Below are positions 2,910-59,479 of a DNA stretch of 60,830 nucleotides, piece after piece. This stretch comes from a virus (taxonomy: Duplodnaviria > Caudoviricetes). The stretch spans positions 1-60,830 of the IMG/VR virus record IMGVR_UViG_3300032053_000074; one strand, written 5' to 3'. Both the position numbers and the translations under genes were made by a program. Below the pieces are notes generated by a model that was given only the letters and a program-made list of their open reading frames with translations, was not told where the DNA came from and did no database searches. How positions within the stretch are numbered: position 1 is the first letter of the stretch; each line of letters begins with the position of its first letter.

Positions 2910-3536
2910 TTAACCTAATTCAGATAACACATTATGAATAATTGAATCTGTTTTTTCCCATCTATTAGAAATTGGATTTCTAACCACCCCTTCGGAAAGA
3001 GCAACTTGTCCTGTTTGAAGAGACATAAACGCACCTTGTGTTGAGGGATTTGAAACAAAATCAAATGCAATTAATTCAAAGTCATCTCCGACAATAGCAG
3101 AACTCTCTGATATTTTCTTTAACGAACCCATTCCACGACTGGAAATTCCGAGTTTTATTCCATTTCTAAATAATTCACGGAGAATGTTTCCATTTGGAGT
3201 AGTAAGAACTTCAACTGTTCCCAACAAATCATTTCCATTCCAATGCATTTCTATAACATTATGAGATACATTTTTCAAGTTTACCACAGATGAATCTGGA
3301 TGATCCAATTCGCCCATTGCTCTTCGTTCTTTAATAAACACATTTGCATATTTTTCAGCTTCACGAATAAGAACCTCGTCCGGATAAATTCTTCCATTTT
3401 GATTTTTCCTAGCTTTACGTTGAAGTATTCCCTGTACTCGAAATGGTTGATTTGGATGTTCGGCTGATTCCCGTAACATAACCGGATCTGCCTCAAATGT
3501 TATACATTCCAATAAAAGTTTTTTTTCGTTATTCAT
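2910..3536 (-). CDS. Prohead core protease (T4 gp21-like)
   Basis: NQNGRIYP, GELDHP, NVSH, TPNG, GISSRGMGS, DFVSNPS motifs. Confidence 0.95.
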   Translation of the reverse strand: MNNEKKLLLECITFEADPVMLRESAEHPNQPFRVQGILQRKARKNQNGRIYPDEVLIREAEKYANVFIKERRAMGELDHPDSSVVNLKNVSHNVIEMHWNGNDLLGTVEVLTTPNGNILRELFRNGIKLGISSRGMGSLKKISESSAIVGDDFELIAFDFVSNPSTQGAFMSLQTGQVALSEGVVRNPISNRWEKTDSIIHNVLSELG

Positions 3537-4387
3537 ATGGTTGTGTCCGTCATTGTTTTTTTAATTCTAATTGCCCATTCATCCTTAGTATCATTGGATT
3601 CCATTTTTACTAAATCATAACGAGTTGAAATTGTGCCGTTTTGTGTTAACTTAAAAAGAGCTGCTGCAAGAGAATCTTTAGTTAAACCTGGCTTTAAAGT
3701 ATTAGCAGGTATTTTTAAATCAAATAAAGCAACCGATTTACCATTTCCTAAATTCTTCATCCATCCAATTCCTTTAATAAAATCACGAGGAGTTGTCTCC
3801 GGTTTTATTAGAAAATTTGGCAACCATAATTTAATATCTTGAGTAATTGCGTCAATTGAATATGCATCATAATGTCCAGTTCCTCCTGCTTCTTTTAATG
3901 GCAACTCTTTAGTTGGAATATTACTTACAGGTGCATGTGACATTGGTTGTGATTGTGCTGTATCAGGATTATTTTCCGGCGAAATTGGATTTTCTACTTT
4001 AGTGTTTGGATTATGTCCTTTTTGAGGAGATGGTTGTCCAGTCGCAGGTCCAACAATTTGAATCTTAAATCCAGGTTTTAGAAAATACTCTTTTGGTTTT
4101 GGAGTAGAATTATCATGTGCAATAACAACATAATTATCATAATAATCATCAAGAGTTATTTTAGAAACATCAAATTCATAATCCTTTACATATTGCTTAT
4201 ATCCACGAGATGCACGAGCATGTATGCGCTTTCCATTTAATCTTTCCCCAATTGCTTGTTCAAACTTTTGTTTTATTTGGTCACTATTACCATCAATCGC
4301 TCGTTTAAAATTTGCATAATCTCTCCCTAGATCATAATATTGACCCGTCGCACCTTGTTGCTCTATTATTCTCTTTAAAGAAATCAT
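3533..4387 (-). CDS. Hypothetical protein
   Basis: 284-aa ORF with 4-nt overlap to the protease gene. Confidence 0.6.
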   Translation of the reverse strand: MISLKRIIEQQGATGQYYDLGRDYANFKRAIDGNSDQIKQKFEQAIGERLNGKRIHARASRGYKQYVKDYEFDVSKITLDDYYDNYVVIAHDNSTPKPKEYFLKPGFKIQIVGPATGQPSPQKGHNPNTKVENPISPENNPDTAQSQPMSHAPVSNIPTKELPLKEAGGTGHYDAYSIDAITQDIKLWLPNFLIKPETTPRDFIKGIGWMKNLGNGKSVALFDLKIPANTLKPGLTKDSLAAALFKLTQNGTISTRYDLVKMESNDTKDEWAIRIKKTMTDTTI

Positions 4388-6710: not shown

Positions 6711-9700
6711 TTATTTTGTATTGTGGATAATGTTACTTTCATCCATTAAGGATTTACTTGAATTTTCCGAAATAAGTTCCTGTGTTACATCAGTCTGTGA
6801 TTTCTTTAGAAATACGGATAAATTACTAATTAAATCCTTATTCTCCTTCATAGACACAGTTGATAACCTGTGTTCTTTTAGACTGAACGGCGAGTCATTC
6901 TCGAAATTATGATCGAAATTACTCTTGCGTTTACCTTCACTATTCTTATTTGGAGAAGATAATCTTTCCTTAGAACCTAATGGATCTTCTCCAAATGGAT
7001 GCTGTGCTCTGGCATCATGTTCGCCACTTTGGTCTCGTTTTTGCTTAATTTCCTTAACCAAATCTTCTGGTTCTTCTTTATTTTTAGTTTCTCCAGGTGG
7101 AGTTTCTTCGTCACCCTTCCCATCCTCACCCTCGCCCTCACCGCCCTCACCCTCACCGCCCTCACCCTCACCAGGTTTACCTTCAAGGTCTTCTATATCA
7201 CCCAATCCACCACCACCACCACCACCACCACCACCCAATCCACCACCCAATCCACCACCACCACCAGAATCAGATTTTTCAGATCCGCCACTCTTTCCTA
7301 TGCCAATTTTATTAAACGGCTTAGCTGGATCATCACCATCTTCCTCAATTTTACTGAATCTATATTTCTGTTTCGAATCTTCCACTACCTGATCTTTAAC
7401 TTCTTTAATATCATCATCAGACATGTGGAATATATTTTTATAAACCCATTCATAAGAGAAGAATTTATTCTCGATCATGTCGGTTGATACAGAAACTTTA
7501 TCAGACCAAATCTCAAGTTTTTCCTTTTCAAAAATTGTACTTGGATTAGTTAATTCCAGTTTGAAATCAACTAGACTTTCGTCACGATATCCTTGAGCAT
7601 ATAGATGAACAATTCCGATTTTCTCTAGTTCATTTGCAATAATCCTCTGAATTCTCTGAATAGTACGAGCGAACCTGACATCTTCCGACGCAAGTGTAGC
7701 TTTTCCGGAAATACCTTCTTCATACCCAAGAAATGCTTTTGGGATTTTTAAGGCAGACATGAGTTTATTACGTAGATATTCGATATCTTCGGTACCCGTC
7801 CATTCCATACCACCAAGGGTATCGATTTTTGTGCCACTATCACTACCACGAACTGGAATGTAATAGTCTTCAACCATGTTCTGGAGATTAAAACGAAGAT
7901 TATATTCCCCACTCTGTTCATCCATATAAGGGACTTTCTTCATTTTATCCATCATCTTCTGCATGTAATTATCAACTTCGGCAGGAGGGATATTTCCAAT
8001 ATCAGTATAAAATATACGCTTTTCAGGTGCTCTCATTATACGATGGATTAACATAGCATCTTCCATCAATGATAATTGCTTCCAAACACGTCTTGCCCCT
8101 TCCAACATAGATTTTCCATATGGCATGAAATTACTATCGGACATCAATCGGAAATGTGCCATCTCGTAGTTTTCTAATACTTCTGCTTGTGCCGTATCAG
8201 TTGGACGCAATTGAAATTTAACATAACGTTTATTATTTGGATCAGCATTCTCAATACGCTCAACATTGTAGGAAGAAATTGGTTCAACCATGTAAACCCC
8301 ATATTCAGGAGTAATATACAATTTTAGATAAAAATCACCGTATTTACAATTTTTCACAAATACACCACTATCTTTGGTTATATTTCCATCCAAATCTTTT
8401 CCACACATCGCAAAATTATGTCTATCATGTTCCCCATTTGGACCAACAACAGTCATACAATAAACGTCGGAAGATTCGTTTATAATTTCAACGGTTTTAA
8501 CTTTATGATTTGGTAGAATACCGTTCTTTCTAAGTTCCTTCATTTTTTTACTGGCAGATTCTCGTCTATCAGAAGTCCATCCACTCTTCATATTTTCACA
8601 TGCACGTTCTCTTCGAACTGGGTCTTTCCACATTTCTGTTTTTAATTTAGATCGTATTTTATCCGATCTAAGATATTTGTCAATACTTCTTTTTCTTTTC
8701 TCTATAATTTCTGGAGTATGTAATATACGTTTACAATGATCTGCGTGTAGTCGTCGATGATCAAAAAACTCCATCGGAATTAGATTTGTTGGAGAATTGT
8801 CATATTTATTGAAATTTTTATGATGTAAAATTCTATTAATGCTATCAGTTTTAATTCCATATGACTCAGCCACGTTACGATGTGTAAAATCATATTTATC
8901 AAGTCCAGGATTATATATCATCTCATACTTATTCATCCCTCCTTTTTCAGGACTCAATTTTCTATAGAACGGCATTAGACTATCATTTTCTTTAAGATCC
9001 TCTGCACATCGTTCAATTCCATTTCGTAATATAAATGGATGTTCGGGTGAAGTTTCTACAAATGAATTGTCATCGAATGTTATTTTTACTATTTTGTTCG
9101 CTGTATAATTTTTATCACACCAAACAACCTTACCTGGTACAATTTGATTTGTTCCATCTTGAACCGAATATACCCAAACTCCCTCCCCGTTCTTTATTTT
9201 ATTGGATAAATCATCTATTCTTATATTTTCCCCCGATAATAATGGAATATAAGAATCATATTTTACTGGCATGTTTCTAGTCCATGACCACATGTTAAAT
9301 TGTACATTTAAGATATCATTGTATAAATTTTCCAATATTTCTTTTACATTATTATTGCTAGAATGCACCGTCAGCATTTTTCCCATTTCATTATAAGTGA
9401 GGCATTCATCCGCATAAATGTCGAGAGCACTACTCAAAATTGGATCCATATCCATTGTATTTTTTACGATACAACTATCCGTAGCAAAATTTGCAAACTT
9501 CTCAACTGTAACATCATATACATCTATTTGACCAATAGATTCAATAGAAACTATTGTATGATTCAAGGTGGATTCAACTTCTTTTTTAAATGATTTCCAA
9601 TTTGTAAATTTTTCGGTTAATCTATTTTGAAGGACAGAGTAATCGCATCCAATATCTTTTATAAGATCCCAAGAAATTAATTTTCCATTTTTCTTATAAT

Positions 9701-48288: not shown

Positions 48289-50157
48289 TCACAGAGCCTT
48301 TTTTACTTTCTTAATGATAAATCGTACAAGTCCACTTCGAACTATATCGTCTTCTGTAAATCTAAAAACATGAATTCCGTTTTGACGACTCTCTTCATCA
48401 TCAAAACTTCCAATCATTTTCACAAATCCACTCTTTCCATTTATATCACTTTGCTCTGGATCGCCTAATATAAATACTTTTGAAAACTCCCCAGTGCGTG
48501 TAATAAGTGTAAATAGTTCTTTAAATGTCATATTTTGTGCTTCATCAGCTATAATAACTTTAGCATTCCAATTCAAACCACGTAGAAATCCAACCGGAAC
48601 ACCCGATACTCGCTCTTCTTTCAATAAAATATCAATATCCGATTTTGGCAGCATTTCCGCCATTTTATCAAGAAGTGGTTGAATATATGGTGCTAATTTA
48701 TCAGTCGCTTCACCAGGAAGAAATCCAATTTTAGCATCAGAACTCTCCACAGCACTTCTTATATAAATCAAATCACTAACCCGCTTATCATTAATCATAT
48801 TAAGAGCATGATATATGGAAAGAAATGTATTATGAGTAACTATAAAGTTATTAGTTAAATATAAATGAGAAGGATTGTCAACTAATATACATTGACATTC
48901 CTTTCTTCCAATAAATTCTACATTTGTTATGTATCTTGTTGGAACATATTTAGATTTAGGAATTATTTTAATAGATTTTCTTTCCAGCCAACAGGGATTG
49001 ATGGATGGATGCATCGCTATACACACTGAATATGAATTCAACCCCTGCCGTTTTTGTTCTAAATAAGTATAAAAATTTTCACGAATTGATACATGACAAA
49101 CTCCTCCTAAAGATTCGACTATAAATCTAATATCATTTGCTAAATTCTTAGAAGTGGTAGTAAATATCACAGAACTTGATTTTGAACAAACATGTCCGTC
49201 ACTATCCATCAACCCTCGTAATAATTCGATTCTATTTTCTATAGAATCGAATAAATATTCATGTGGAATAAATTTATTCTCGGATTTTAACATATCCAAT
49301 TTTAATTTTATGATCTCATTTTTTATAAGATTTCCATTGTTATAGGCAATTGATTTCTTTTTGTGGATAATCGAATATTCATATTTTGCCGATGGCAATT
49401 TATTTATTTTAACTTCATGTGGAAGTTCTTTATTCATTTTCAATATAATAGATTCGTCCGAAGTTGTAAATGTGACATTTCCTTTTCGGCGAAAACATCC
49501 ATCACCAAGTAAAAACCCCATTATGTATGGAGAAATTATATGGGATTGGTGCTTAAATTTAATTGGCAATGTTATTGGTATAGAATGATTAATTCTATTT
49601 TGTCTAACGTATAATGTATCTTTAATTTCCGATGTCGTTTTTGTAGTTCCTTCTCTTGAGGTTGTCCATTCTCTATGTCGCTTTCCATTGATAGTTGGCA
49701 ACCATCTTCGTTGATTTCTATCATTGGAAGTTTGAGTTTTCCACAAATGATCCTCCGTGCATTCAGTAAATGTTCCATCTGAAAATGATACTTTGCAAAT
49801 TTCCTTTTCTCCTTGTGGATGTAACGATAAAACCGACCACAAATTTCCATCTTCTCCAAATATTTTATCCCCTACTTTAATGTTTCCCATTTTTATCCAT
49901 CCATTTTCTCCTAAAATTATGGAATCTAATGGTTGTGCCTTGCTTGTTCCAGCAGGACCAGAAACAAATACAAGACTTACGTCTTTATTAGATGCTAACT
50001 CTAAAAACTGTTTCTGCTTATCATTTAATTTTCTGTTATATATTTTGAGATTTCCTTTGAATTTAGATCTCTGAGGAACATCTGGACTATAATCTTTTAC
50101 GATGGATTCATGTGGGTTTATCAGGGTTTGATTTATCCGTTTTTTCTTTTTCATCAT
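48289..50157 (-). CDS. phoH: PhoH-family ATPase with intein
   Basis: GPAGTSK|T, RSAVE..GFLPG, FLRGL, ADEAQN, LITR.G, GDPEQSD, DIVRSGLV. Confidence 0.93.
   Translation of the reverse strand: MMKKKKRINQTLINPHESIVKDYSPDVPQRSKFKGNLKIYNRKLNDKQKQFLELASNKDVSLVFVSGPAGTSKAQPLDSIILGENGWIKMGNIKVGDKIFGEDGNLWSVLSLHPQGEKEICKVSFSDGTFTECTEDHLWKTQTSNDRNQRRWLPTINGKRHREWTTSREGTTKTTSEIKDTLYVRQNRINHSIPITLPIKFKHQSHIISPYIMGFLLGDGCFRRKGNVTFTTSDESIILKMNKELPHEVKINKLPSAKYEYSIIHKKKSIAYNNGNLIKNEIIKLKLDMLKSENKFIPHEYLFDSIENRIELLRGLMDSDGHVCSKSSSVIFTTTSKNLANDIRFIVESLGGVCHVSIRENFYTYLEQKRQGLNSYSVCIAMHPSINPCWLERKSIKIIPKSKYVPTRYITNVEFIGRKECQCILVDNPSHLYLTNNFIVTHNTFLSIYHALNMINDKRVSDLIYIRSAVESSDAKIGFLPGEATDKLAPYIQPLLDKMAEMLPKSDIDILLKEERVSGVPVGFLRGLNWNAKVIIADEAQNMTFKELFTLITRTGEFSKVFILGDPEQSDINGKSGFVKMIGSFDDEESRQNGIHVFRFTEDDIVRSGLVRFIIKKVKKAL
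48829..49938 (-). mobile_element. Class-3 intein (370 aa, LAGLIDADG) in the PhoH P-loop
   Basis: K|AQPLDS...CTEDHLW...MGFLLGDG...LLRGLMDSDG...ECQCILV...IVTHN|T; WCT triad present. Confidence 0.9.
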
Positions 50158-51271: not shown

Positions 51272-51496
51272 GTGAACAATATACCATAGATTAACAATTT
51301 GTCAATGTTTATTTTCATTATTCAAACTGATATTTATAATAAGTGAAGAGAGAATTTGATTTACAACATCTGAATTTGCATTTTAAATGTATGTATAAAC
51401 TTATATTTAAAACTTATCCAAATAAAAATTCACCGAGAAAAATATTCTTTTATTTGAGAGGGATGTTAAGAAGTATAGGAATTATTAAAAATTAAA

Positions 51497-51585
51497 TGGC
51501 GGATAACTGAGTAATCGAAACCCACCCCTGTTAAGGAGCAATCTGTTTTCGAGGCAGTTCTAGTACCCTGACTAGTTAATTATCC
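51497..51585 (-). tRNA. tRNA-Ser(CGA), atypical (U53-A61, weak anticodon stem)
   Basis: Cloverleaf with long variable arm, loop CTCGAAA, GCCA end. Confidence 0.8.
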
Positions 51586-51592
51586 ATTAAAT

Positions 51593-51613
51593 TTGGCGGA
51601 AGTGGAGAGAATC
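51593..51613 (-). pseudogene. 3' fragment of a tRNA-Ser-like gene
   Basis: CGATTCTCTCCACTTCCGCCA without a 5' half. Confidence 0.4.
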
Positions 51614-51638
51614 GGAAAAGAACAATAAATCTTTAGTA

Positions 51639-51714
51639 TGGTGGAGATCCCGGGCTTCGCTCCCGGCACCTACTGATTGCAAATCAGTCGCTCTACTAAA
51701 TGAGCTAGATCCCC
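51639..51714 (-). tRNA. tRNA-Ala(TGC), atypical T-loop
   Basis: G3:U70; ACTGA-TTTGCAA-TCAGT; T-loop AGCGAAG; D-loop lacks GG; ACCA end. Confidence 0.88.
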
Positions 51715-51729
51715 ATTATTATAATAAAT

Positions 51730-51802
51730 TGGTTGCGGTCGCCAGAATTAAACTGGTCCAATACCTTATGAGAGTATTATGCTATCATTACACCTCCCCG
51801 CA
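51730..51802 (-). tRNA. tRNA with CAT anticodon (Met or Ile2), degenerate
   Basis: ATACT-CTCATAA-GGTAT; mismatched acceptor stem; T-loop TTTAATT; ACCA end. Confidence 0.6.
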
Positions 51803-51850
51803 ATAAAATTCAACCATCTACTTATAACTATATCACAAAACTATTAAATG

Positions 51851-52348
51851 TCAAGAAATTTCTTCTATTGGAAGACTATACCATTTATCAGGAAAGAATT
51901 TTTCATTATTTTGTTCAACAAAATATTCATTTCCGCTTCTATAAATAACAGAAAATCTATTTCCATTATAACCTAATACACTTTCAAATTCTTTTGGTGT
52001 ATGTATAAATATATTGTAAGATATATATTCTTTTCTGCATTTATCACAATATGCTTCAAAATAATATTCTCCACTCTTATACTTTCCCGATTTTCCACAT
52101 CTAATACATGATTCAGAAATCCATTCATCATGGTCTATTTTAATTTCTTTGTATTGTGTTGGTATAGGTTCCATTTTAGAAATAATATTATTTCCAACAA
52201 TTATCTCGTCAAATATGTATTGTCCATATCCAGATTTTACACAATAAACTTGTTTGAATTCAGTAATAATTTTCCCAATTTGAATATCTTTACTTCTATG
52301 AGAATTATACTTGATTATATCACCGACTTTTAAATTATTTATATTCAT
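51851..52348 (-). CDS. Hypothetical protein (zinc ribbon)
   Basis: CIRCG...CDKC. Confidence 0.55.
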   Translation of the reverse strand: MNINNLKVGDIIKYNSHRSKDIQIGKIITEFKQVYCVKSGYGQYIFDEIIVGNNIISKMEPIPTQYKEIKIDHDEWISESCIRCGKSGKYKSGEYYFEAYCDKCRKEYISYNIFIHTPKEFESVLGYNGNRFSVIYRSGNEYFVEQNNEKFFPDKWYSLPIEEIS

Positions 52349-52365
52349 AAAATTAGTTTATTGGT

Positions 52366-52761
52366 TTACCAACCTAAATTGTGAAAATACTTTGTAAATA
52401 ATTCCATTCCTTCTTTATATTTTAAATATGCATCATCATAATCTGATTTTATTTTTATTTCAGACCATTTGTCCATAGTCAATGTGAATTTAAAAGCAAA
52501 TATCATTTTATCTAAAATATGATTCCATGCTTCTTCCGATACTTCTCCACCAGGATATGCATTAGTTACTCCTTTAAATCTAATCAATCTTGGAAGAATA
52601 AATTCTGCGATTACTTTATCAAGACACCAAGTTTCAGTATCGGAAAATCCGTTTGACTTCAATTGCTTCATATGCCTATTATAATGTTTATCATTCTTTT
52701 TAATATAGAGCGGCATTTTAATAGACCATTTACTAATTAAATTCTTTGATATTTTTTTCAT
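52366..52761 (-). CDS. Phage hypothetical protein
   Basis: ETWCLD..IA.FILPRL..FK...YP...W..ILDKMI.AF...G.ELF.KYF..L. Confidence 0.65.
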   Translation of the reverse strand: MKKISKNLISKWSIKMPLYIKKNDKHYNRHMKQLKSNGFSDTETWCLDKVIAEFILPRLIRFKGVTNAYPGGEVSEEAWNHILDKMIFAFKFTLTMDKWSEIKIKSDYDDAYLKYKEGMELFTKYFHNLGW

Positions 52762-52786
52762 AGCTTCTTATTTTTAATTCTAAGTT

Positions 52787-52822
52787 GTTTCAATCAACTC
52801 ATCACCCCAAAGGGTGATGAAA
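52787..52822 (-). CRISPR. Solitary CRISPR-repeat-like unit (no array)
   Basis: TTTCATCACCCTTTGGGGTGATGAGTTGATTGAAAC: 9-bp hairpin plus GTTGATTGAAAC tail, flanked by a 17-bp direct repeat. Confidence 0.55.
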
Positions 52823-52948
52823 ATTTTTAATTCTAAGTTTACGAGCATCATCCAATAATTTCTGCTTCAACTTAGCATCTAATATAAATTGCCTAAAACT
52901 TCCTTTCGGACAACCGCATACTTCATCAATTGTAATTTTCTTATTCAT
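52802..52948 (-). CDS. Small protein (48 aa) whose 3' end is interrupted by the repeat unit
   Basis: MNKKITIDEVCGCPKGSF...KLRIKNFHHPLG*; overlaps the stop of the upstream gene. Confidence 0.5.
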   Translation of the reverse strand: MNKKITIDEVCGCPKGSFRQFILDAKLKQKLLDDARKLRIKNFHHPLG

Positions 52949-53552
52949 AAGGATTTGCTAATATAGATTCTAATGTTCCCCTTGGCATATCGTCCAAAGT
53001 CTTTACAAAATCACGTAATAATCTGAAACTATTTGGAATCAATTCATCTGGAATATCAGTTGTATCCGTCACAAATGGTTTTATTAATTGTGCAGCATGA
53101 ACAGCTTTTAAATGAGTACGTGCCATTAATTTATCATGAGATTCAGGAGTAAATCTCTCCCATGTCTTATCCATCATTTGATTATTATCAAAGATGTTAG
53201 ACACCTTACCAAATTTATCTATAAATTCCTTTTCTGAATCATAACCACATTCGTAAGTGAGAATGGAATTTCTTTTTAATTCAGGTGTTCTCTTTCCGAA
53301 AAGAGGATGAATACTTGTTACTTCCGAAGTATGTCTTAACAAGATATTAGTACTTGATTCTTGTACTGAACACACGTTGATCAAATGCATTTTTTTTGTA
53401 AAACACAATTCATGTGCCACACTTTCATAAGCAGAAATGGGGACTGCTAAAATAACGCTGTAGGCATCATTTGTAATATTAAATCCATGCACTGGTAACA
53501 ATTCTTTTAAAAATTTACCAAAAGATCCATCTCCTATAATATTAATTTTCAT
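52941..53552 (-). CDS. Prephenate/arogenate dehydrogenase-like protein (TyrA family)
   Basis: IIGDGSFG Rossmann motif, VILAVPI, NVCSV, HPLFG, TPESHDKLMA..H. Confidence 0.7.
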   Translation of the reverse strand: MKINIIGDGSFGKFLKELLPVHGFNITNDAYSVILAVPISAYESVAHELCFTKKMHLINVCSVQESSTNILLRHTSEVTSIHPLFGKRTPELKRNSILTYECGYDSEKEFIDKFGKVSNIFDNNQMMDKTWERFTPESHDKLMARTHLKAVHAAQLIKPFVTDTTDIPDELIPNSFRLLRDFVKTLDDMPRGTLESILANPYE

Positions 53553-53629
53553 ACTAAGGAGTATATACTAGATACATAATATGTCAAGTGTAAAGTTCAC
53601 TTGATTTTACAGGTAGATAACACTTAGAA

Positions 53630-53733
53630 TTTGGACAAATAGTGCATATTATTTCATGACCAACTTTCATTGGTGCGATGCGGCACTTGCGCCCAATCCC
53701 TTACGGAATACTCCTTTCGGGAATTTGTCCAAA
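53630..53733 (-). ncRNA. Unknown 104-nt multi-hairpin RNA (RNase P S-domain-like)
   Basis: 11-bp closing stem TTTGGACAAAT/ATTTGTCCAAA; internal GAAA, GTAA and GAAA hairpins; AGTGC/GCACT stem; TGAAA in an internal loop. Confidence 0.6.
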
Positions 53734-53734
53734 A

Positions 53735-53990
53735 TTTTTGTTGCTGCCGTAGCCGATGTTCTGTTTTATCTCTACATTAATCTCAATATTTCTATTGGCC
53801 AAACTTTATGTTCAGCTGCTCCAACCTTGACTTAATAACGTGTAGAACTACACTCAGTCACTTTAGGATTACTTCTAATATGTGGTTATATCGAATATAG
53901 AGTTAACGCTCCAATTCTCCCAATCATCTTCTATGAAGCATCGAACTTCCTCTAACCTTTCGGTCAGCGTAGAGTCGCATACAACAAAAT
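53735..53990 (-). ncRNA. rnpB: RNase P RNA (compact, divergent S domain)
   Basis: P1, P2 (CTCTAC/GTAGAG), P3, CR-I GAGGAAGTTCGATGC pairing with CR-V ACAGAACATCGGCTA (P4, bulged U), P5, P15, P18 GAAA, CR-IV AGATTAATG. Confidence 0.85.
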
Positions 53991-54006
53991 TCAAATAACT
54001 GACAAT

Positions 54007-54035
54007 ATCCTACACTGAAGGAGGAACATTGTCAA
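54007..54035 (-). promoter_or_regulatory. Sigma70-like promoter for the RNase P RNA
   Basis: TTGACA-17nt-TAGGAT ending about 17 nt before P1. Confidence 0.55.
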
Positions 54036-54390
54036 TCTTTTTATCTTCAGGTTTCGGAACAATTTCCAATTCGGTTTTAGCTGATTGTAATTGTGCCATC
54101 TGAAAATCATAATTTAATTGTGATTCATTATCCTTACTCTCAGCAAATCTCTGAACTGGTTTCATTAGACTAAATGCAACGAGTATATATACCCATTCTT
54201 TTGGAGGAACGACTAATGCCCCCGATGACATTGATAGATAGGATACTATTGTCATAAATGTTGCAATAACAATAAATCCAATTATGCGTGAATATGAAAA
54301 TGATGGAGGATCGGTTGCATCAAGAAACATTGACCATATAGGTGGTGCTTTTGGCTTTGCCGGGGTTAAACTTTTTATTTCTTTACTCAT
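54010..54390 (-). CDS. Two-TM membrane protein (holin-like)
   Basis: S.SRIIGFIVIATFMTIV and WVYILVAFSL hydrophobic segments; charged C-terminus. Confidence 0.5.
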   Translation of the reverse strand: MSKEIKSLTPAKPKAPPIWSMFLDATDPPSFSYSRIIGFIVIATFMTIVSYLSMSSGALVVPPKEWVYILVAFSLMKPVQRFAESKDNESQLNYDFQMAQLQSAKTELEIVPKPEDKKIDNVPPSV

Positions 54391-54406
54391 ATCTATTCAA
54401 CATAAC

Positions 54407-54754
54407 TTAAATACTTTTTGGTCTATTTTCTTCGATGGATTTCTTCAATCCTTCAAGATCATCCCGATACATCATGATCATATAAGTAAATCCAGGTTTA
54501 TCATTATCTTCGACCATTTCCATTATGAAATTTTTAATATCAATGTCCGATGGTTTCCAATCAAATTCTTCACAAATTGCAACTACCGATTCTCCTAATG
54601 GAGATATATTAAATGCACATTCTACCACTTTCATTTTTGCAAGTTTATCGAGATAACTTATAATCATCATCATCGAAATATATTCTGGCTGAATAACCAG
54701 ACCATCAATTTTCGTACGCTCTATAATTGCACTGAACTTTTCATCATTTGTCAT
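54407..54754 (-). CDS. Hypothetical protein
   Basis: 115-aa ORF preceded by TACTTATA. Confidence 0.6.
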   Translation of the reverse strand: MTNDEKFSAIIERTKIDGLVIQPEYISMMMIISYLDKLAKMKVVECAFNISPLGESVVAICEEFDWKPSDIDIKNFIMEMVEDNDKPGFTYMIMMYRDDLEGLKKSIEENRPKSI

Positions 54755-54784
54755 AGTTTATAAGTATACCTTTTTAGTTAAGAA

Positions 54785-54863
54785 TGGTCCGCCCGGTCAG
54801 ATTTGAACTGACATTATTCCTGACCCCAAATCAGGTGCCATAACCAAGTTAGGCGACGGACGG
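54785..54863 (-). tRNA. tRNA-Pro(TGG)
   Basis: CCTGA-TTTGGGG-TCAGG; GTTCAAATC; ACCA. Confidence 0.93.
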
Positions 54864-55031
54864 ATATTTATGTTATTTCTTTTTAGAAATTAAAGTTTTT
54901 AATAGATTTAGGAACATCTTCAAAGAATTTATTGATTTCGGCTTTGACTTAACCAATTTCTTTTCCTTGCACTTCGCTTTAGGAACGTGTTTTTTTCTCA
55001 TTTATAATTGAATTACTAATCTCCCATATCT

Positions 55032-55418
55032 TTATTCTATGAATGTCAATGGAACTTGTTTCAATTGTCCCTTACTCAATATGCTAAGATCAAGTATTCT
55101 AACTTCATATGTGGACCTTCTAGTTACTATTAACTGATTACCAACACCTATAGGAAATGCAATGGTATTCCAATTTGTTTTAATAAAACCATTGGTATCA
55201 ATGTATGTATAATATCCTTCAAAATATCCATTATAACCATTATATAAATTATAAGTATGTCCTGGAACAATGTTAAAGTAAGAATCTGAATATGAGACAT
55301 CATATGATGTTGGCTGAACACTGTATGGATGAATATAATAAAATGTGAATCCTGCAATTGTTGATACGCATATTGCAAAACATATAATACTGACTAATAT
55401 TGTCTTTAGAATTTTCAT
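55032..55418 (-). CDS. Secreted or membrane-anchored hypothetical protein
   Basis: Signal-like MKILKTILVSIICFAICV; the track start overlaps a tRNA, so moved to 55418. Confidence 0.55.
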   Translation of the reverse strand: MKILKTILVSIICFAICVSTIAGFTFYYIHPYSVQPTSYDVSYSDSYFNIVPGHTYNLYNGYNGYFEGYYTYIDTNGFIKTNWNTIAFPIGVGNQLIVTRRSTYEVRILDLSILSKGQLKQVPLTFIE

Positions 55419-55427
55419 ATTTTTAGA

Positions 55428-55517
55428 TGGCGGAAAGCACAGAGCACGATTCTGATGCACACTTAAGGCACGAAGAGTTTAGCAAACTCTCATGGCACCC
55501 CGGCCATTTTACTTTCC
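55428..55517 (-). tRNA. tRNA-Ser(GCT), atypical
   Basis: AGAGT-TTGCTAA-ACTCT; long variable arm; T-loop ATCGTGC; A8; GCCA. Confidence 0.82.
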
Positions 55518-55588
55518 ATTGTGTATAACTATAACACATATTTTCAAAATGTCAATAAATATTATAACGAACATTATAGATAATAAAT

Positions 55589-55662
55589 TGGTAGGAGATA
55601 GTGGAATCGAACCACTCACTGATGGATGTAAACCAACTGTTATACCGATTAACTAATCTCCC
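55589..55662 (-). tRNA. tRNA-Val(TAC)
   Basis: Loop TTTACAT; GGTTCGATTCC; ACCA. Confidence 0.93.
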
Positions 55663-55670
55663 ATAAATTG

Positions 55671-55781
55671 TTTTCCGATTGCAGATTTAAACCTGCCCTA
55701 AGTGTTGACCACACACTCGCTTTATTATTGGTTACAACCTTCTTATTTTAAATAAGATCTTGACCAGAATCTATCGGAAAA
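55671..55781 (-). ncRNA. tRNA-like RNA with an enlarged first arm
   Basis: TTTTCCGAT/ATCGGAAAA closing stem; AGTGT-7nt-ACACT arm; GCAG-GTTTAAAT-CTGC T-like arm; no CCA. Confidence 0.4.
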
Positions 55782-55783
55782 AA

Positions 55784-55872
55784 TGGCGGATGACTGAGTA
55801 TTCGAAACCCACCCCTGTTAAGGGGCAATCCGATTTCAAGTCGGTTCCAGTACCCTGACTGGTTAATCATCC
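55784..55872 (-). tRNA. tRNA-Ser(TGA), U53-A61
   Basis: CCGA-CTTGAAA-TCGG; long variable arm; GCCA; paralog of Ser(CGA). Confidence 0.88.
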
Positions 55873-55903
55873 ATATAATAACTATAAGTTAATATTCTCA
55901 AAA

Positions 55904-55979
55904 TGGTGCTCCCATACGGAGTTGAACCGTAATCTTCGATTTAGGAAATCGTAGCTCTATCCATTTGAGCTATAGGAGC
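55904..55979 (-). tRNA. tRNA-Arg(CCT)
   Basis: CGAT-TTCCTAA-ATCG; GGTTCAACTCC; ACCA. Confidence 0.93.
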
Positions 55980-55984
55980 ATAAA

Positions 55985-56146
55985 TTATTTCAATATTTTC
56001 AATACCAATTTTGCTTTCTTTAACTTCTGTTCCGTCAACTCATATTCTTTAGGAGTTGCTTTTCTTTTAAAATTAGGACTACGTAATCTATTCTCAAGAA
56101 ATAAAATGTAATCCTGTTCGTGTTTTAGTCGTTTATTCTTCGTCAT
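55985..56146 (-). CDS. Small basic protein (53 aa, not in ORF track)
   Basis: MTKNKRLKHEQDYILFLENRLRSPNFK...KLVLKILK. Confidence 0.5.
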   Translation of the reverse strand: MTKNKRLKHEQDYILFLENRLRSPNFKRKATPKEYELTEQKLKKAKLVLKILK

Positions 56147-56154
56147 AAATAAAA

Positions 56155-56796
56155 TTATATATCCATATCAGTTTTAATATTTGTCATATCGTCTTTATCT
56201 TTAAATAAGAAAAAATGATTATTCGCTTCTAACAAATAATAATTACTTATCTTACAAAGTTTTTTAGCCATATAAGAATATACTTTGCTTCTTCTACCTT
56301 CATCATAATCTTTAAATGATATTCCTCGTGGAGAATGACGATTAATAAAAGTAAGCATAATGCTTTGTAACTTCTTCAATACTCGTATCGGAGAATTAGA
56401 ATTTGTCAACCCATATTCAAATTCATCAAGTTCCTTAGAAAATGTCTTGGTATCATTACCAATTAATAATGGCTTTTTAATATATTGAGATGATATACGC
56501 TTAAAAGAAAAGCGATAGAATCCAACAAGAACTCTTGAAATATCACATTCCACTTCAAAAATATCTCCATCTATATTTATATTTTTTCTTAATGTATTTT
56601 TATCCAGTTTAAAAATATTATGTTCGTCTGAATCTTCCGGGTCTAATAATTCTGAAAAATATTTTTTCATTATATCTTTTTTATTATCTACAAAATAATT
56701 TTCGGTTATAAATATTTTACCAATTTTATCAGCATACCAATCTTTCGCTAAACTTTCAGTAATTACATTCTTCTTAGATGTTATCTTACATTTCAT
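56155..56796 (-). CDS. Hypothetical protein
   Basis: 213 aa; P.GISF......RSKVY..M. Confidence 0.6.
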   Translation of the reverse strand: MKCKITSKKNVITESLAKDWYADKIGKIFITENYFVDNKKDIMKKYFSELLDPEDSDEHNIFKLDKNTLRKNINIDGDIFEVECDISRVLVGFYRFSFKRISSQYIKKPLLIGNDTKTFSKELDEFEYGLTNSNSPIRVLKKLQSIMLTFINRHSPRGISFKDYDEGRRSKVYSYMAKKLCKISNYYLLEANNHFFLFKDKDDMTNIKTDMDI

Positions 56797-56880
56797 ATTT
56801 TAATTATTTATCATAAATCGTCAGAAATATTATCTTCAATATTTACGGTTCCGTTAAGGTTCCTATTGAATGATTAACAA

Positions 56881-57114
56881 TCAATACCAAGCATTCCCAA
56901 ATATAATGTCACCTTGTAAGGATTTATGCATTAAAGAAGTCATTCTTTCTATCTGTCTTCCATATGTATCCGTTTTATTTGCATCATCTGATACAAAAAT
57001 TATGTTTATACATGTAGGACTCCAAACTGCACTTACCAATGCTCGATGTTCATTTCTTAGAGAATCAATAAATGTTACTGAATCACCTATTTTTACTATT
57101 GCTGTTTCGTTCAT
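56881..57114 (-). CDS. Hypothetical protein
   Basis: IGD.V.F.D.....ALV.AVW...CIN..FVS.D....D.YGRQIER.TS. Confidence 0.6.
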   Translation of the reverse strand: MNETAIVKIGDSVTFIDSLRNEHRALVSAVWSPTCINIIFVSDDANKTDTYGRQIERMTSLMHKSLQGDIIFGNAWY

Positions 57115-57176
57115 ATTTCTGTCTTTCTTTTTACTCTAAATACATAATTATATTTAGAAAACAGAAGTTCTAAAAA

Positions 57177-57253
57177 TGGTGCAGTCGGAGGGACTCGAAC
57201 CCTCAACCTTACGGGTAGAAACCGTTTGCGCTATCCAATTGCGCCACGCCTGC
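57177..57253 (-). tRNA. tRNA-Arg(TCT)
   Basis: ACGG-TTTCTAC-CCGT; GGTTCGAGTCC; ACCA. Confidence 0.93.
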
Positions 57254-57259
57254 ATAAAT

Positions 57260-57344
57260 TGGTGCTGGTAGAGGGAGTCGAACCCACACGCCTTTCGGCA
57301 AAAGATCCTAAATCTTTCGTGGCTGCCAATTACACCATACCAGC
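57260..57344 (-). tRNA. tRNA-Leu(TAG)
   Basis: AAAGA-TTTAGGA-TCTTT; variable arm GCC-GAAA-GGC; ACCA. Confidence 0.95.
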
Positions 57345-57348
57345 AAAA

Positions 57349-57573
57349 TCATTTTTTCTTTTCATCGGGACACGATGATTCAAGTTCAAATTCAAATTGT
57401 TTTTCTGAGGGAAATGGTCTTAACATTGCACTCAATTTTTTTGGAAAATCAAAAAACACACAAAGTGAATCAGTACCTACATAAACTGTATTTCCAGTTT
57501 GACGCTTGATTGCTTTTTCAAAAGTCTTCATAGACTCGAAATCTGCATCTTCGAATTTAAGATTTAATTTCAT
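57349..57573 (-). CDS. Hypothetical protein
   Basis: ATG start at 57573 (MKLNL). Confidence 0.5.
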   Translation of the reverse strand: MKLNLKFEDADFESMKTFEKAIKRQTGNTVYVGTDSLCVFFDFPKKLSAMLRPFPSEKQFEFELESSCPDEKKK

Positions 57574-57574
57574 A

Positions 57575-57706
57575 TTAATGTTTCCAAGGGTCTGGTGTTG
57601 GTAAAGTCCAAGTTGATTTTTCTGGTTCACCTATGGGATGATCATTAAAAAATGTCGTACATCCACTTAGCAGTATTAATATGATTGAACCTAAAAATAA
57701 TTTCAT
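57575..57706 (-). CDS. Small lipoprotein (43 aa, not in ORF track)
   Basis: MKLFLGSIILILLSG|C lipobox; TTGACA-16-TATAGT promoter upstream. Confidence 0.6.
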   Translation of the reverse strand: MKLFLGSIILILLSGCTTFFNDHPIGEPEKSTWTLPTPDPWKH

Positions 57707-57841
57707 AATTCATTAACTATACAGTAGATTAAGATAATGTCAACTAAATTCTTATAGCTGCTACTAATATTTCATCATGATAAAACACGTTTGCCTTATT
57801 TAACTCATCCTATGAGCACTATAATATTTACGTAATTATTT

Positions 57842-58267
57842 TTAATAAATCAACTTACTATCAAATAGTGTAGATTCTAATTTGGAAATCTGTAATGTTA
57901 TAAATTCTCTAAGTTCCTCATCATGACAAATATAAGAAATTCTAAATCTAATACCACCCATTTTTAATTTAATCTGATGAATTTCAAATCCTTCTATTTT
58001 AGAGTTCTTTTGAAAACTAACTAAATATTCAAGAAATTCATCTATAATTAAATACCATAAATGATGAAATGGCTCTCCGAAACTCATTCCATACCATCCA
58101 ATAGGAACATATTCCCGCCATTTACTTAATAATTTTCTCTCCTCTTCAAAACAACCTTCACTGTATTTTGCTTTAATTTCACTATTAATATAGAGATTAA
58201 TATCCGTTACTTCAGGAAACCAATAATTTCTATATCCATCATATTTACTCAAGATTGTTGTTATCAT
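57842..58267 (-). CDS. Phage hypothetical protein
   Basis: GW...W..II; QIKLKMGGIRF. Confidence 0.6.
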   Translation of the reverse strand: MITTILSKYDGYRNYWFPEVTDINLYINSEIKAKYSEGCFEEERKLLSKWREYVPIGWYGMSFGEPFHHLWYLIIDEFLEYLVSFQKNSKIEGFEIHQIKLKMGGIRFRISYICHDEELREFITLQISKLESTLFDSKLIY

Positions 58268-58320
58268 AAAACACATGATACACTGTATTTACGGAATGTC
58301 AATAATATTTTATTGGAAAT

Positions 58321-58397
58321 TGGTGCGCCTGGAGGTAGTTGAAACCTCATCATATCCGGTTAAAAGCCGGGTGCCGATCCACTGTAGCATCAAACGC
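58321..58397 (-). tRNA. tRNA-Lys(TTT), atypical (A8, U53-A61)
   Basis: CCGG-CTTTTAA-CCGG; GAGGT-TTCAACT-ACCTC; ACCA. Confidence 0.85.
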
Positions 58398-58406
58398 ATT
58401 GAAAAC

Positions 58407-58519
58407 TAGATACCATTTTTTTGGTCTGCTGTCTTACCACTTGACCATATCATTCGAAAATGATAAATGGAATCGAACCATTGTATGCAGATTGAGTTTT
58501 ATTATGCTGTTAGTATCTA
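58407..58519 (-). ncRNA. Circularly permuted tRNA mimic (YrlA/Y-RNA-like)
   Basis: Order T-arm, closed acceptor hairpin (UUCG), D-arm; TCTGC/GCAGA stem; outer TAGATACTA/TGGTATCTA stem. Confidence 0.7.
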
Positions 58520-58528
58520 AATTATAAA

Positions 58529-58602
58529 TGGAGCCGGATGACAGAATCGAACTGTCATTCTCTGTTTACAAAACAGTAGTTCTACCATTGAACTAAACCG
58601 GC
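58529..58602 (-). tRNA. tRNA-Thr(TGT)
   Basis: CTGT-TTTGTAA-ACAG; GTTCGATTC; TCCA. Confidence 0.93.
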
Positions 58603-59289
58603 TTAAATCTTTTTAAATTCTATTCCATTTTCTGTCAATAATGCATAATCACCATCTTTACTTAGTCTTCCTATGCATATTAATTTTATGAGGAAATTAT
58701 TATATTCTACTACAAAGTTTCTATGATTATGCCCAATTAAAACCGCTTTTGTTTTATTATTCCATGGATAGGTTTTAATAAATTCATCTTTAGTAAATGT
58801 TTCTTCTGTAAAAGACCATAAATCATTAGGACGATTATGAAAACAGATATAATTACTTTCATCTGGTAAAATCAACTTAAATCCTCTTGGCAATCCCTTT
58901 AGATAATCAATATGTTGTTGAGTTAAATCATAAATATCCGACTCAGCTAAAACTGATTCTCCCTCATTATATTTCGGTAAAACCTTAACAAAACTGTCGC
59001 CGGTACTACAACCTAAAATATGGGATTCATGATTTCCTTCCAAACATGGAATCTGGTTGTCTATGAAATATTGAATTGATTTTTCATTCCACTTTTCTTT
59101 CACTTTAGAAAATAAAAAGGTAATATCACCCAAACAAATAAACTTATTATTCGAATAAATTTCTTTTAATTTTCTAATATTTGTAATATTAGTATGAGTA
59201 TCTGTAATTATAACTAACGGAAATTCTTTAACTTCAATTTCTTGAAGATTAGGTTTATTGTCGTATGACTTAGTTAGTATTAATTCCAT
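58603..59289 (-). CDS. Calcineurin-like metallophosphoesterase
   Basis: TDTH.N, CLGD, GNHE, CFH, GHNH motifs. Confidence 0.85.
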   Translation of the reverse strand: MELILTKSYDNKPNLQEIEVKEFPLVIITDTHTNITNIRKLKEIYSNNKFICLGDITFLFSKVKEKWNEKSIQYFIDNQIPCLEGNHESHILGCSTGDSFVKVLPKYNEGESVLAESDIYDLTQQHIDYLKGLPRGFKLILPDESNYICFHNRPNDLWSFTEETFTKDEFIKTYPWNNKTKAVLIGHNHRNFVVEYNNFLIKLICIGRLSKDGDYALLTENGIEFKKI

Positions 59290-59403: not shown

Positions 59404-59479
59404 TGGTACCTCCAGCGAGACTCGAACTCGCAAACTCAGTTTCGAAGACTGTTATGATATCCAATTTCATCACAGAGGC
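59404..59479 (-). tRNA. tRNA-Arg(TCG)
   Basis: CAGT-CTTCGAA-ACTG; GTTCGAGTC; ACCA. Confidence 0.92.

Follow-up and report, generated by a model that had tools for sequence, protein, structure and literature searches.

The closest described relatives of the genes considered here are the (8/4) tRNA-Ser genes, members of the allo-tRNA group that were reported from tRNA gene clusters of uncultured phages (Mukai 2017, NAR, PMC5389517). As the consulted portions of that paper describe them, these tRNAs have a long D stem with a tetraloop, a long variable arm and either G73 or U73, and a review, in the part drawn on here, states that allo-tRNAs are used by the translation system of E. coli (PMC7609411). 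Two further systems are relevant: phage tRNAs that escape anticodon nucleases and differ from host tRNAs at conserved positions in a manner proposed to be adaptive (van den Berg 2023, eLife, PMC10264068, as excerpted here), and metazoan mitochondrial tRNAs, in which a change of the elbow accompanies loss of the docking module in RNase P (Zhang and Ferre-D'Amare 2016, PMC4810234, likewise in excerpt). The tRNA elbow is among the most conserved of RNA structures, its readers being the ribosome, RNase P, T-boxes and many enzymes. Here, we examined a tRNA gene array in the IMG/VR virus record IMGVR_UViG_3300032053_000074 (Duplodnaviria; Caudoviricetes), the entire 60,830 bases of which are referred to below as the window. 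Since CheckV rates this fragment as 17% complete, the phage genome is probably roughly 350 kb. In the reading that we consider likely, the locus is a huge-phage array with six recurrent elbow-variant tRNAs whose changes are compensated, and the RNase P RNA found inside the array would serve as a general processing aid rather than as the specific partner of those six tRNAs.

ARAGORN at its default settings called 10 tRNAs, which lie between 51639 and 59479 and are all encoded on the minus strand. Lowering the threshold raised the number of candidates to 42; 13 of these map to the minus strand past position 51400 and possess a CCA end. The genes gained in this manner encode Ser(CGA), Ser(GCU) and a Met-like CAU tRNA. 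An earlier note on this DNA, made from its letters alone, had proposed ARAGORN scoring as a check, and all of the tRNAs it named were indeed called, some only at the lowered threshold. The Rfam tRNA model (RF00005, cut-off 29 bits) placed nine genes at or above its cut-off and one more at 28.5 bits (51734-51801), and gave no match to any of the three Ser genes, even at E≤5. Seven of the 13 tRNAs are fully canonical and six deviate at the elbow, each of the six failing at least one of G53-C61, a UUCRANY T-loop and a D-loop GG. The six deviating genes are as follows.

51497..51585, minus strand: tRNA-Ser(CGA), putative 8/4 type, with U53-A61; ARAGORN 93.9 at the lowered threshold, no Rfam tRNA match
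51639..51714, minus strand: tRNA-Ala(UGC), with an odd T-loop and a D-loop without GG; ARAGORN default, Rfam 55 bits (passes)
51730..51802, minus strand: tRNA with a CAU anticodon (Met or Ile2-like); ARAGORN 85.9 at the lowered threshold, Rfam 28.5 bits (below the cut-off)
55428..55517, minus strand: tRNA-Ser(GCU), putative 8/4 type, with A53-U61 and T-loop AUCGUGC; ARAGORN 86.8 at the lowered threshold
55784..55872, minus strand: tRNA-Ser(UGA), putative 8/4 type, with U53-A61; ARAGORN 103.2 (default), no Rfam tRNA match
58321..58397, minus strand: tRNA-Lys(UUU), with U53-A61 and an unusual acceptor-to-D-arm junction; ARAGORN 102.4, Rfam 29.8 bits (borderline)

Most of the individual deviations had been listed by the earlier note, and the parsed arms agree with it on T53-A61 in Ser(CGA), Ser(UGA) and Lys(UUU), on A53-T61 together with T-loop ATCGTGC in Ser(GCU), and on T-loop AGCGAAG, D-loop ATTTAGTA without GG and G3:T70 in Ala(UGC), the last also being evident in the ARAGORN drawing. 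The T-loops of the U53-A61 trio are normal (TTCGATT, TTCGAAT and TTCAACT, respectively). The sixth odd tRNA, that with the CAU anticodon, was absent from the note; its T-loop is TTTAATT, with U56, and its D-loop, AATGATA, has no GG. The note had further stated that stems remain paired and that CCA is encoded. The second part holds for 13 of 13 genes in the parsed arms, while the first fails in two of them: the anticodon stem of Ser(CGA) has only three standard pairs in the ARAGORN fold, and the acceptor stem of the CAU tRNA contains two mismatches. Overall, the observation is confirmed and extended, and the interpretation that the note placed upon it is partly supported.

For comparison with phage arrays in general, we used a neutral sample drawn from viral contigs seeded by a common D-arm motif, with the seeding tRNA excluded, which comprised 36 deduplicated arrays of at least five tRNAs each and 391 tRNAs in all. 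A canonical tRNA in this census is one having both G53-C61 and a UUCRANN T-loop. G53-C61 was found in 385 of the 391 neutral-sample tRNAs versus 9 of 13 in the window (Fisher p = 1.2e-4), and 341 of 391 versus 7 of 13 were fully canonical (Fisher p = 4.3e-3).

Evidence that these elbows are altered in sequence while their architecture is retained comes from covariation among a larger pool of 1,362 distinct phage tRNAs, taken from all of the fetched DNA and compared at their 7-nt T-loops; the pool was partly pattern-selected, and its counts for pair 53-61 are biased. When T-loop positions 55-56 are UC, the D-loop contains GG in 1216 of 1251 tRNAs. When they are GC, most D-loops have AG (58 of 69) and few have GG (10 of 69; Fisher p = 8e-67), and when they are UU, most have GA (20 of 26) and few have GG (5 of 26; Fisher p = 3e-26). 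The 54-58 pair behaves similarly, being UA in 1283 tRNAs and AU in 46, with A54 accompanying U58 in 46 of 48 cases. Thus, given that the partners covary, the elbow is kept and its letters are exchanged. Three of the window tRNAs belong to these variant classes: Ala(UGC) to the G55 class (59/69 without GG), the CAU tRNA to the U56 class (21/26 without GG), and Ser(GCU) to the A54/U58 class. In the Ala(UGC) class, G55 in the T-loop goes with AG in place of GG in the D-loop, which we read as A18, and in the CAU class, U56 goes with GA in place of GG, which we read as A19-U56 replacing G19-C56. Ser(GCU) has, in addition to its T-stem change, A54/U58 in place of the U54-A58 pair. These approximately 1,360 phage tRNAs constitute a natural data set in which 18-55, 19-56, 54-58 and 53-61 change in coordination; the covarying elbows reveal which replacements are tolerated and offer ready variants for testing what each elbow reader needs. 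As far as our literature searches reach, both such systematic elbow recoding and the widespread phage RNase P RNAs considered below are undescribed.

The largest group among the odd tRNAs is formed by the three Ser genes, and its recurrence was examined by an exact search for the Ser T-arm pattern, which returned 8 viral and 43 metagenome contigs (51 in total). ARAGORN calls a tRNA over the motif at 40 of these 51 loci, nearly all being tRNA-Ser with the anticodons UGA, CGA, GCU or GGA. By contrast with those 51 contigs, 185,579 prokaryote species, each represented by one genome, contain the pattern in only seven places, and just one of these is a real tRNA, located on a 1.8-kb tRNA-array contig of a metagenome-assembled genome. 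Because the family is nearly absent from the species genomes and present in the 51 contigs, we conclude that it is phage-borne. A host-derived origin of the family was also considered and was rejected by the same prokaryote search.

An alignment of the Ser family, in which 50 rows were kept by the filter (a few of them canonical or non-Ser), revealed pairing of position 8 with position 65, the bases being T-A (39 rows), A-T (3) or G-C (2). Position 49 remains T in the five A-T or G-C rows, so that a 7/5 fold is mismatched there, and the window's Ser(GCU) is among these rows: its 8:65 pair holds and its 49:65 pair is broken. From the covariation of 8:65 and the mismatched 49:65 we therefore derive an 8/4 arrangement, with an 8-bp acceptor stem and a 4-bp T stem stacking up to 12 bp in total. 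The base that the earlier note described as A8 in Ser(GCU) is indeed present, although it more plausibly forms the eighth pair of an acceptor stem of 8 bp. The 5-bp D stems reported in the same note are possible in all three genes (ctagt/actag, ccagt/actgg and atggc/gccat), each closing a 6-nt loop, and the fifth pair of the stem covaries, being T-A in two genes and C-G in one. All three genes have a variable-arm hairpin and G73, with the anticodons CGA, UGA and GCU; Ser(CGA), for example, combines the D-loop CAGGGU with a long variable arm and G73. These genes would accordingly fit an 8/4-type tRNA-Ser in which acceptor and T stems of 8 and 4 bp are combined with a 2-nt connector and a long D stem with a short loop. 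They resemble the published (8/4) tRNA-Ser (PMC5389517), as far as its description was consulted, in the 12-bp 8/4 branch, the long variable arm, G73 and the Ser anticodons. They may also share its long D stem and short loop, an arrangement reminiscent of tRNA-Sec, but their D loops are 6 nt rather than a tetraloop, and other members of the family have a D stem of 4-5 bp.

Judged by these predicted folds, the long D stem, the supposed A8 and the odd T stem of the Ser genes are accounted for by the published 8/4 tRNA-Ser class. In this class, the closing pair of the T stem seems to be usually U-A or A-U rather than G-C, and among 8/4-type Ser tRNAs lying outside the T-arm pattern, pair 53-61 is mostly U-A or A-U, with one C-G and two G-C. 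The Ser part of the array is therefore of a known kind, and what the present analysis contributes is the spread of one T-arm variant over 51 contigs and its near absence from bacteria. Relatives indicate that the variant is maintained. The orthologue of Ser(CGA) in the syntenic contig L018 has compensatory changes in both the acceptor stem and the D stem, Ser(UGA) is a paralogue of Ser(CGA) that likewise has compensatory changes, and another phage record (G005) encodes a Ser tRNA with a T arm of the Ser(GCU) kind (agga ATCGTGT tctt). Two array tRNAs in other contigs (L201 2258-2339 and L244 6782-6864) scored best against the Rfam tRNA-Sec model, at 41.3 and 42.9 bits and thus below its cut-off of 47, as would be predicted for an 8/4 tRNA or one with a long D stem.

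The remaining odd tRNAs recur as well. The D region and T arm of Lys(UUU) are found in three viral contigs (L121, L122 and L125), and the family has four different acceptor stems, all of which are fully paired. Lys(UUU) would thus belong to a conserved phage tRNA-Lys family marked by U53-A61 and an unusual D-arm junction. The Ala tRNA, with A54 and G55 in its T-loop, AUUUAGUA as a D-loop without GG, and G53-C61 retained, shares its AGCGAAG T arm with Ala tRNAs of two viral contigs (L126 and L128). For the CAU tRNA, the orthologue in L018, a closer and syntenic relative, has T-loop TTCAATT and a GG D-loop. In comparison with this orthologue, both partners of the 19-56 pair have changed in the window, and the anticodon stem differs by two compensatory pairs. 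Among other relatives, three contigs (L009, L010 and L011) encode, at 2836-2910, an amber-reading tRNA with a CTA anticodon and A53-T61, the only one lacking G53-C61 among the 48 distinct tRNAs of those relatives; this tRNA may point to stop-codon recoding in that phage.

The earlier note also supposed that the phage has its own RNase P RNA, and this is borne out, since a covarying P4 helix and a homologue matching RF00010 place one inside the tRNA array. At none of the settings used does Rfam itself report an RNase P RNA in the window (the RF00010 gathering score is 100 bits). A non-coding segment of about 250 nt has homologues by nhmmer in related viral contigs, always within tRNA arrays.

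53735..53990 (ends approximate), minus strand: predicted divergent RNase P RNA with a class A-like catalytic domain and a much reduced S-like insert; nhmmer homologues, covarying P4 and P5

RNAalifold predicts for these sequences a helix between distant segments that contains a bulged U and numerous compensated pairs and corresponds to P4, and P5 covaries too. In the nine-sequence structure, 90.8% of cells are paired versus 71.1% in shuffled alignments (none of 500 reaches the observed value) and 26-48% in slid controls. In P4 alone, pairing reaches 97.2% of cells, and both partners are changed in 5 of its 8 pairs. Against RF00010, the homologue from G002 (locus L002), a complete genome of 365 kb, scores 44.1 bits (E 1.3e-12) over the whole model; the aligned elements include P1, P3, P15 with GGU and two sequence blocks, GAGGAA and ACAGAAC..GGCUA. 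The positions of the S domain that form the interdigitated T-loops (J11/12-J12/13) are gaps in this alignment, and the window RNA is not itself alignable to the model. Between the P5 strands, the insert of the window RNA up to an ACCACA motif is 56 nt. The segment thus resembles bacterial class A RNase P RNA in P4 with its bulged U, in P1-P3 and P5, in a P15-like helix where GGU is invariant, and in two motifs, GAGGAAG..UUCG and ACAGAAC....GGCUA, that correspond to the CR blocks of the consensus. It differs from RF00010 in its length (~250 nt versus a 367-position model), in the lack of any Rfam match in the window, in the unmatched S-domain consensus positions of the relative's alignment and in being encoded by a phage within a tRNA array. 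On these catalytic-domain hallmarks, 53735-53990 is a predicted RNase P RNA and would be expected to cleave pre-tRNAs.

Related RNAs were searched for with nhmmer profiles, a P4 complementarity scan, RF00010 and RF00011. A CR-I motif scan of viral contigs yielded at least 117 loci, many of them chance matches; among the matches listed, and without deduplication, 36 of the 117 loci have an nhmmer match. Several phage RNase P RNAs exceed the Rfam cut-off, with 191.1 bits in the complete 168-kb genome G007 (158741-159070), 145.4 in L203 and 124.4 in both L239 and L244, the last contig holding RNase P RNAs at 3489-3836 and 8239-8603 and a tmRNA (99.8 bits) in the same array. RNase P RNA genes are thus common inside phage tRNA arrays, some of them passing the Rfam cut-off and others, as in the window, being invisible to it. 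Phrase searches of the literature found no description of a phage-encoded RNase P RNA. The protein subunit RnpA (PF00825) was not found in the phage records G000, G001, G002, G003 and G005, and the phage RNA probably acts with the host protein subunit.

Two other features of these RNAs were noted. Directly downstream of the window's RNase P-like RNA, at 53600-53735 on the minus strand, are two conserved hairpins (CCCGAAAGGAGTATTCCGTAAGGG and GGCGCAAGTGCC), a block that also follows the RNase P-like RNA in seven other contigs (L020, L174, L180, L192, L221, L227 and L249) and that may be either a 3' extension of that RNA or a separate small RNA. Separately, contig L008 (11812-11977) contains an RNase P-like RNA of only ~166 nt, with complementary P4 strands (CGCGT/ACGCG) and almost no S-like insert.

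The earlier note linked the two elements, suggesting that the elbows and the phage RNase P may have evolved together and that the altered tRNAs may need this enzyme for maturation. Set out in full, this would mean that the phage enzyme lacks the elbow-docking module and that the odd pre-tRNAs need or prefer it for 5' maturation. The presence of an RNase P RNA within the array and the gapped S-domain positions with the 56-nt insert favor such a link. There is also a precedent in the mitochondrial case, where, in the portion of the source consulted, elbowless tRNAs co-occur with RNase P and L1 regions that lack interdigitated T-loops (PMC4810234). To assess the association, 22 deduplicated arrays with the RNA were compared with the 36 neutral arrays, using statistics that ignore kinship. 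Odd tRNAs made up 68 of 281 (24%) in arrays with the RNA versus 50 of 391 (13%), which gives a Mann-Whitney p of 0.032 per array, and 11 of 22 arrays with the RNA versus 8 of 36 neutral arrays contained at least 20% odd tRNAs (p = 0.044). A shorter S-like insert tended to go with more odd tRNAs, at a non-significant Spearman coefficient of -0.49 (p = 0.087, n = 13, one genome being included twice). Five records (G000, G005, G006, G007 and G010) combine the RNA with 23-46% odd tRNAs. CCA encoding was marginally more frequent in the arrays with the RNA, with means of 0.83 versus 0.64 (p = 0.05), a difference to which we attach no weight.

The enrichment and the insert-length trend weigh against our reading of the RNA as a general aid, and so do several other points. 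The RNA counts as absent from a neutral array on the basis of the 1-15 kb of surrounding DNA that was fetched, and G001, which is used below as a counter-example, could carry a form of RNase P RNA that was missed by both the profile and Rfam. On the side of the tRNAs, positions 18 and 19 were assigned from dinucleotides in the ARAGORN D-loops, without structural alignment. The published 8/4 class (PMC5389517) was compared through the consulted part of its text alone, and U53-A61 may already belong to its consensus.

Counter-examples are found in both directions, however. The genome G002 has the RNA and 53 of its 55 tRNAs are canonical, and 7 of the 22 arrays with the RNA hold no odd tRNA. Loci with the RNA and none odd include L183, L181, L198, L254, L238 and L272, and L244, which also has the RNA, has 1 odd tRNA among 28. 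Conversely, G001, a complete 345-kb genome with terminal repeats, carries 8/4-type Ser tRNAs with C53-G61 and U53-A61, and no RNase P RNA was detected in it by nhmmer, the P4 motif scan, RF00010 or RF00011. The 79% complete G003 similarly has 8/4-type Ser tRNAs without a detected RNase P RNA, and the 8 neutral arrays with at least 20% odd tRNAs have no such RNA in the fetched locus. In G007, 13 of 34 tRNAs are odd even though the RNA is a full-scoring class A RNA (191 bits), and S-domain loss is therefore unnecessary. According to the consulted portion of PMC4810234, contact between RNase P and the elbow consists mainly of the enzyme's interdigitated T-loops stacking on the flat 19-56 pair. 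The compensated elbows should be acceptable to host RNase P as well, because docking stacks on a flat pair and covariation preserves that pair. The phage tRNAs thus differ from the mitochondrial ones in keeping their elbow by covariation and in having an RNase P association that is weak and not obligatory. From these results, the correlation of atypical T arms with rnpB that the note had proposed to look for is weakly present in the overall proportions and breaks down in individual arrays, the proposed need of the odd tRNAs for the phage enzyme is not supported, G002 and G001 speaking against it, and co-evolution of the two is weakly supported. An obligate or preferred pairing with an elbow-blind phage enzyme we regard as unlikely. 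Whether phage tRNAs and phage RNase P are matched to each other is a question that bench experiments can now address, given the defined substrates and counter-examples.

It is likewise rather improbable, in our estimation, that the recoded elbows hide the phage tRNAs from a factor that reads the elbow sequence, be it a host defence or toxin, a phage nuclease or the host modification enzymes. The variant families are common in phage contigs and all but missing from bacterial genomes. Among their members is Lys(UUU), on which anti-phage tRNases classically act, and their changes remove U54, U55 or G18 while the fold is kept. Phage tRNAs do escape such nucleases through mutation, according to the sections of the literature drawn on here (PMC10264068, PMC13056530). 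The mutations described in PMC10264068, however, as far as its excerpted text goes, lie in the anticodon loop, whereas the differences in the window are at the elbow and T stem. Similarly, PrrC, PARIS AriB, PtuAB, Schlafen and OLD, in the accounts consulted, all cut the anticodon arm or loop, no elbow-reading defence was found in the consulted part of the literature on anti-phage tRNases, and no gene for such a nuclease was identified among the 10 window open reading frames scanned against Pfam.

A broader proposal combines the two ideas above, namely that some huge phages maintain a semi-orthogonal tRNA supply line, in which recoded elbows go unread by host factors and are matured by an elbow-blind RNase P stripped of its S domain. 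Its components would be a CCA-encoding array with 8/4 Ser tRNAs, A18/G55, A19-U56 and A54/U58, and such a line, if real, would sustain phage translation while host tRNAs or host tRNA processing are disabled. We give it a small chance of being correct.

Least credible is relaxed selection, under which a short-lived need and AT-biased mutation would erode G18, G19, C56 and G53-C61 and leave the low scorers decaying or marginal. In its favor, the window has 32.1% G+C, several of the changes replace G or C by A or T, the scores from ARAGORN and Rfam are low, and mismatches exist both in the anticodon stem of Ser(CGA) and in the acceptor stem of the CAU tRNA. Against it, the elbow changes occur as compensating pairs, the same forms are kept in distant contigs with compensated stems, CCA is retained in all 13 genes and U55 to G55 runs against AT pressure, which makes this explanation very improbable. 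Decaying pseudogenes were rejected as a candidate, given that the same forms occur in other contigs with compensated stems, and the earlier note's preference for selection over decay was well founded, with other phages holding the same forms together with compensatory changes.

The general-aid reading therefore remains the one that we favor. Under it, six of the 13 tRNAs would represent recurrent phage-borne variant classes in which the elbow sequence is changed and the architecture is kept by compensation, and these tRNAs would be working decoders with an intact L shape. Presumably they lack the usual U54, U55 or G18 on which the modification enzymes of the host act in the T arm and D-loop. 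The phage RNase P RNA would most likely be a general 5'-processing aid for a large CCA-encoding array, at most weakly associated with the odd tRNAs and not specifically required by them.

The other seven tRNAs of the array, all having canonical elbows and found by both ARAGORN at default settings and Rfam, are as follows.

54785..54863, minus strand: tRNA-Pro(UGG)
55589..55662, minus strand: tRNA-Val(UAC)
55904..55979, minus strand: tRNA-Arg(CCU)
57177..57253, minus strand: tRNA-Arg(UCU)
57260..57344, minus strand: tRNA-Leu(UAG)
58529..58602, minus strand: tRNA-Thr(UGU), beyond the span of the earlier note
59404..59479, minus strand: tRNA-Arg(UCG), beyond the span of the earlier note

A blastn search of 51400-58700 against GenBank phages returned only short tRNA matches and no relative. 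Near-identical DNA of the window region is present in several sediment metagenome runs, and contigs from four sediment DNA runs included near-identical copies in other samples and showed no informative variation within the odd tRNAs.

Two structured elements lie between the tRNA genes. The first, at 58420-58521 on the minus strand between tRNA-Thr and tRNA-Lys, is a permuted tRNA-like module with a minimum free energy of -24.8 kcal/mol (z = -2.58). A 10-bp stem closes it, and it further comprises a canonical T arm with the loop UUCGAUU, an acceptor-like hairpin of 7 bp with a UUCG cap, and a hairpin resembling a D arm. Its layout resembles the tRNA-like domain of bacterial Y RNAs (YrlA). The module has no Rfam match and no homologue among the fetched loci, and no Ro/TROVE domain was found in the window. 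The second, at 55665-55790 on the minus strand, is a tRNA- or tmRNA-like element of 126 nt without an encoded CCA, which is called by neither ARAGORN nor Rfam. It includes an acceptor-like stem (TTCCGAT/ATCGGAA) that shows compensatory changes, a D-like segment (GATTCTGGTCAAGATC) and a 3' hairpin (GCAG..CTGC), and it is kept in L198 (E 3.7e-9) and L206 (E 1e-3), both of which have an RNase P RNA at the locus. Elsewhere in the window, a gene for a PhoH-like ATPase (48289-50157, minus strand, E 9.9e-42) contains LAGLIDADG and Hom_end domains in its middle, and these homing-endonuclease domains suggest that the gene carries an intein.

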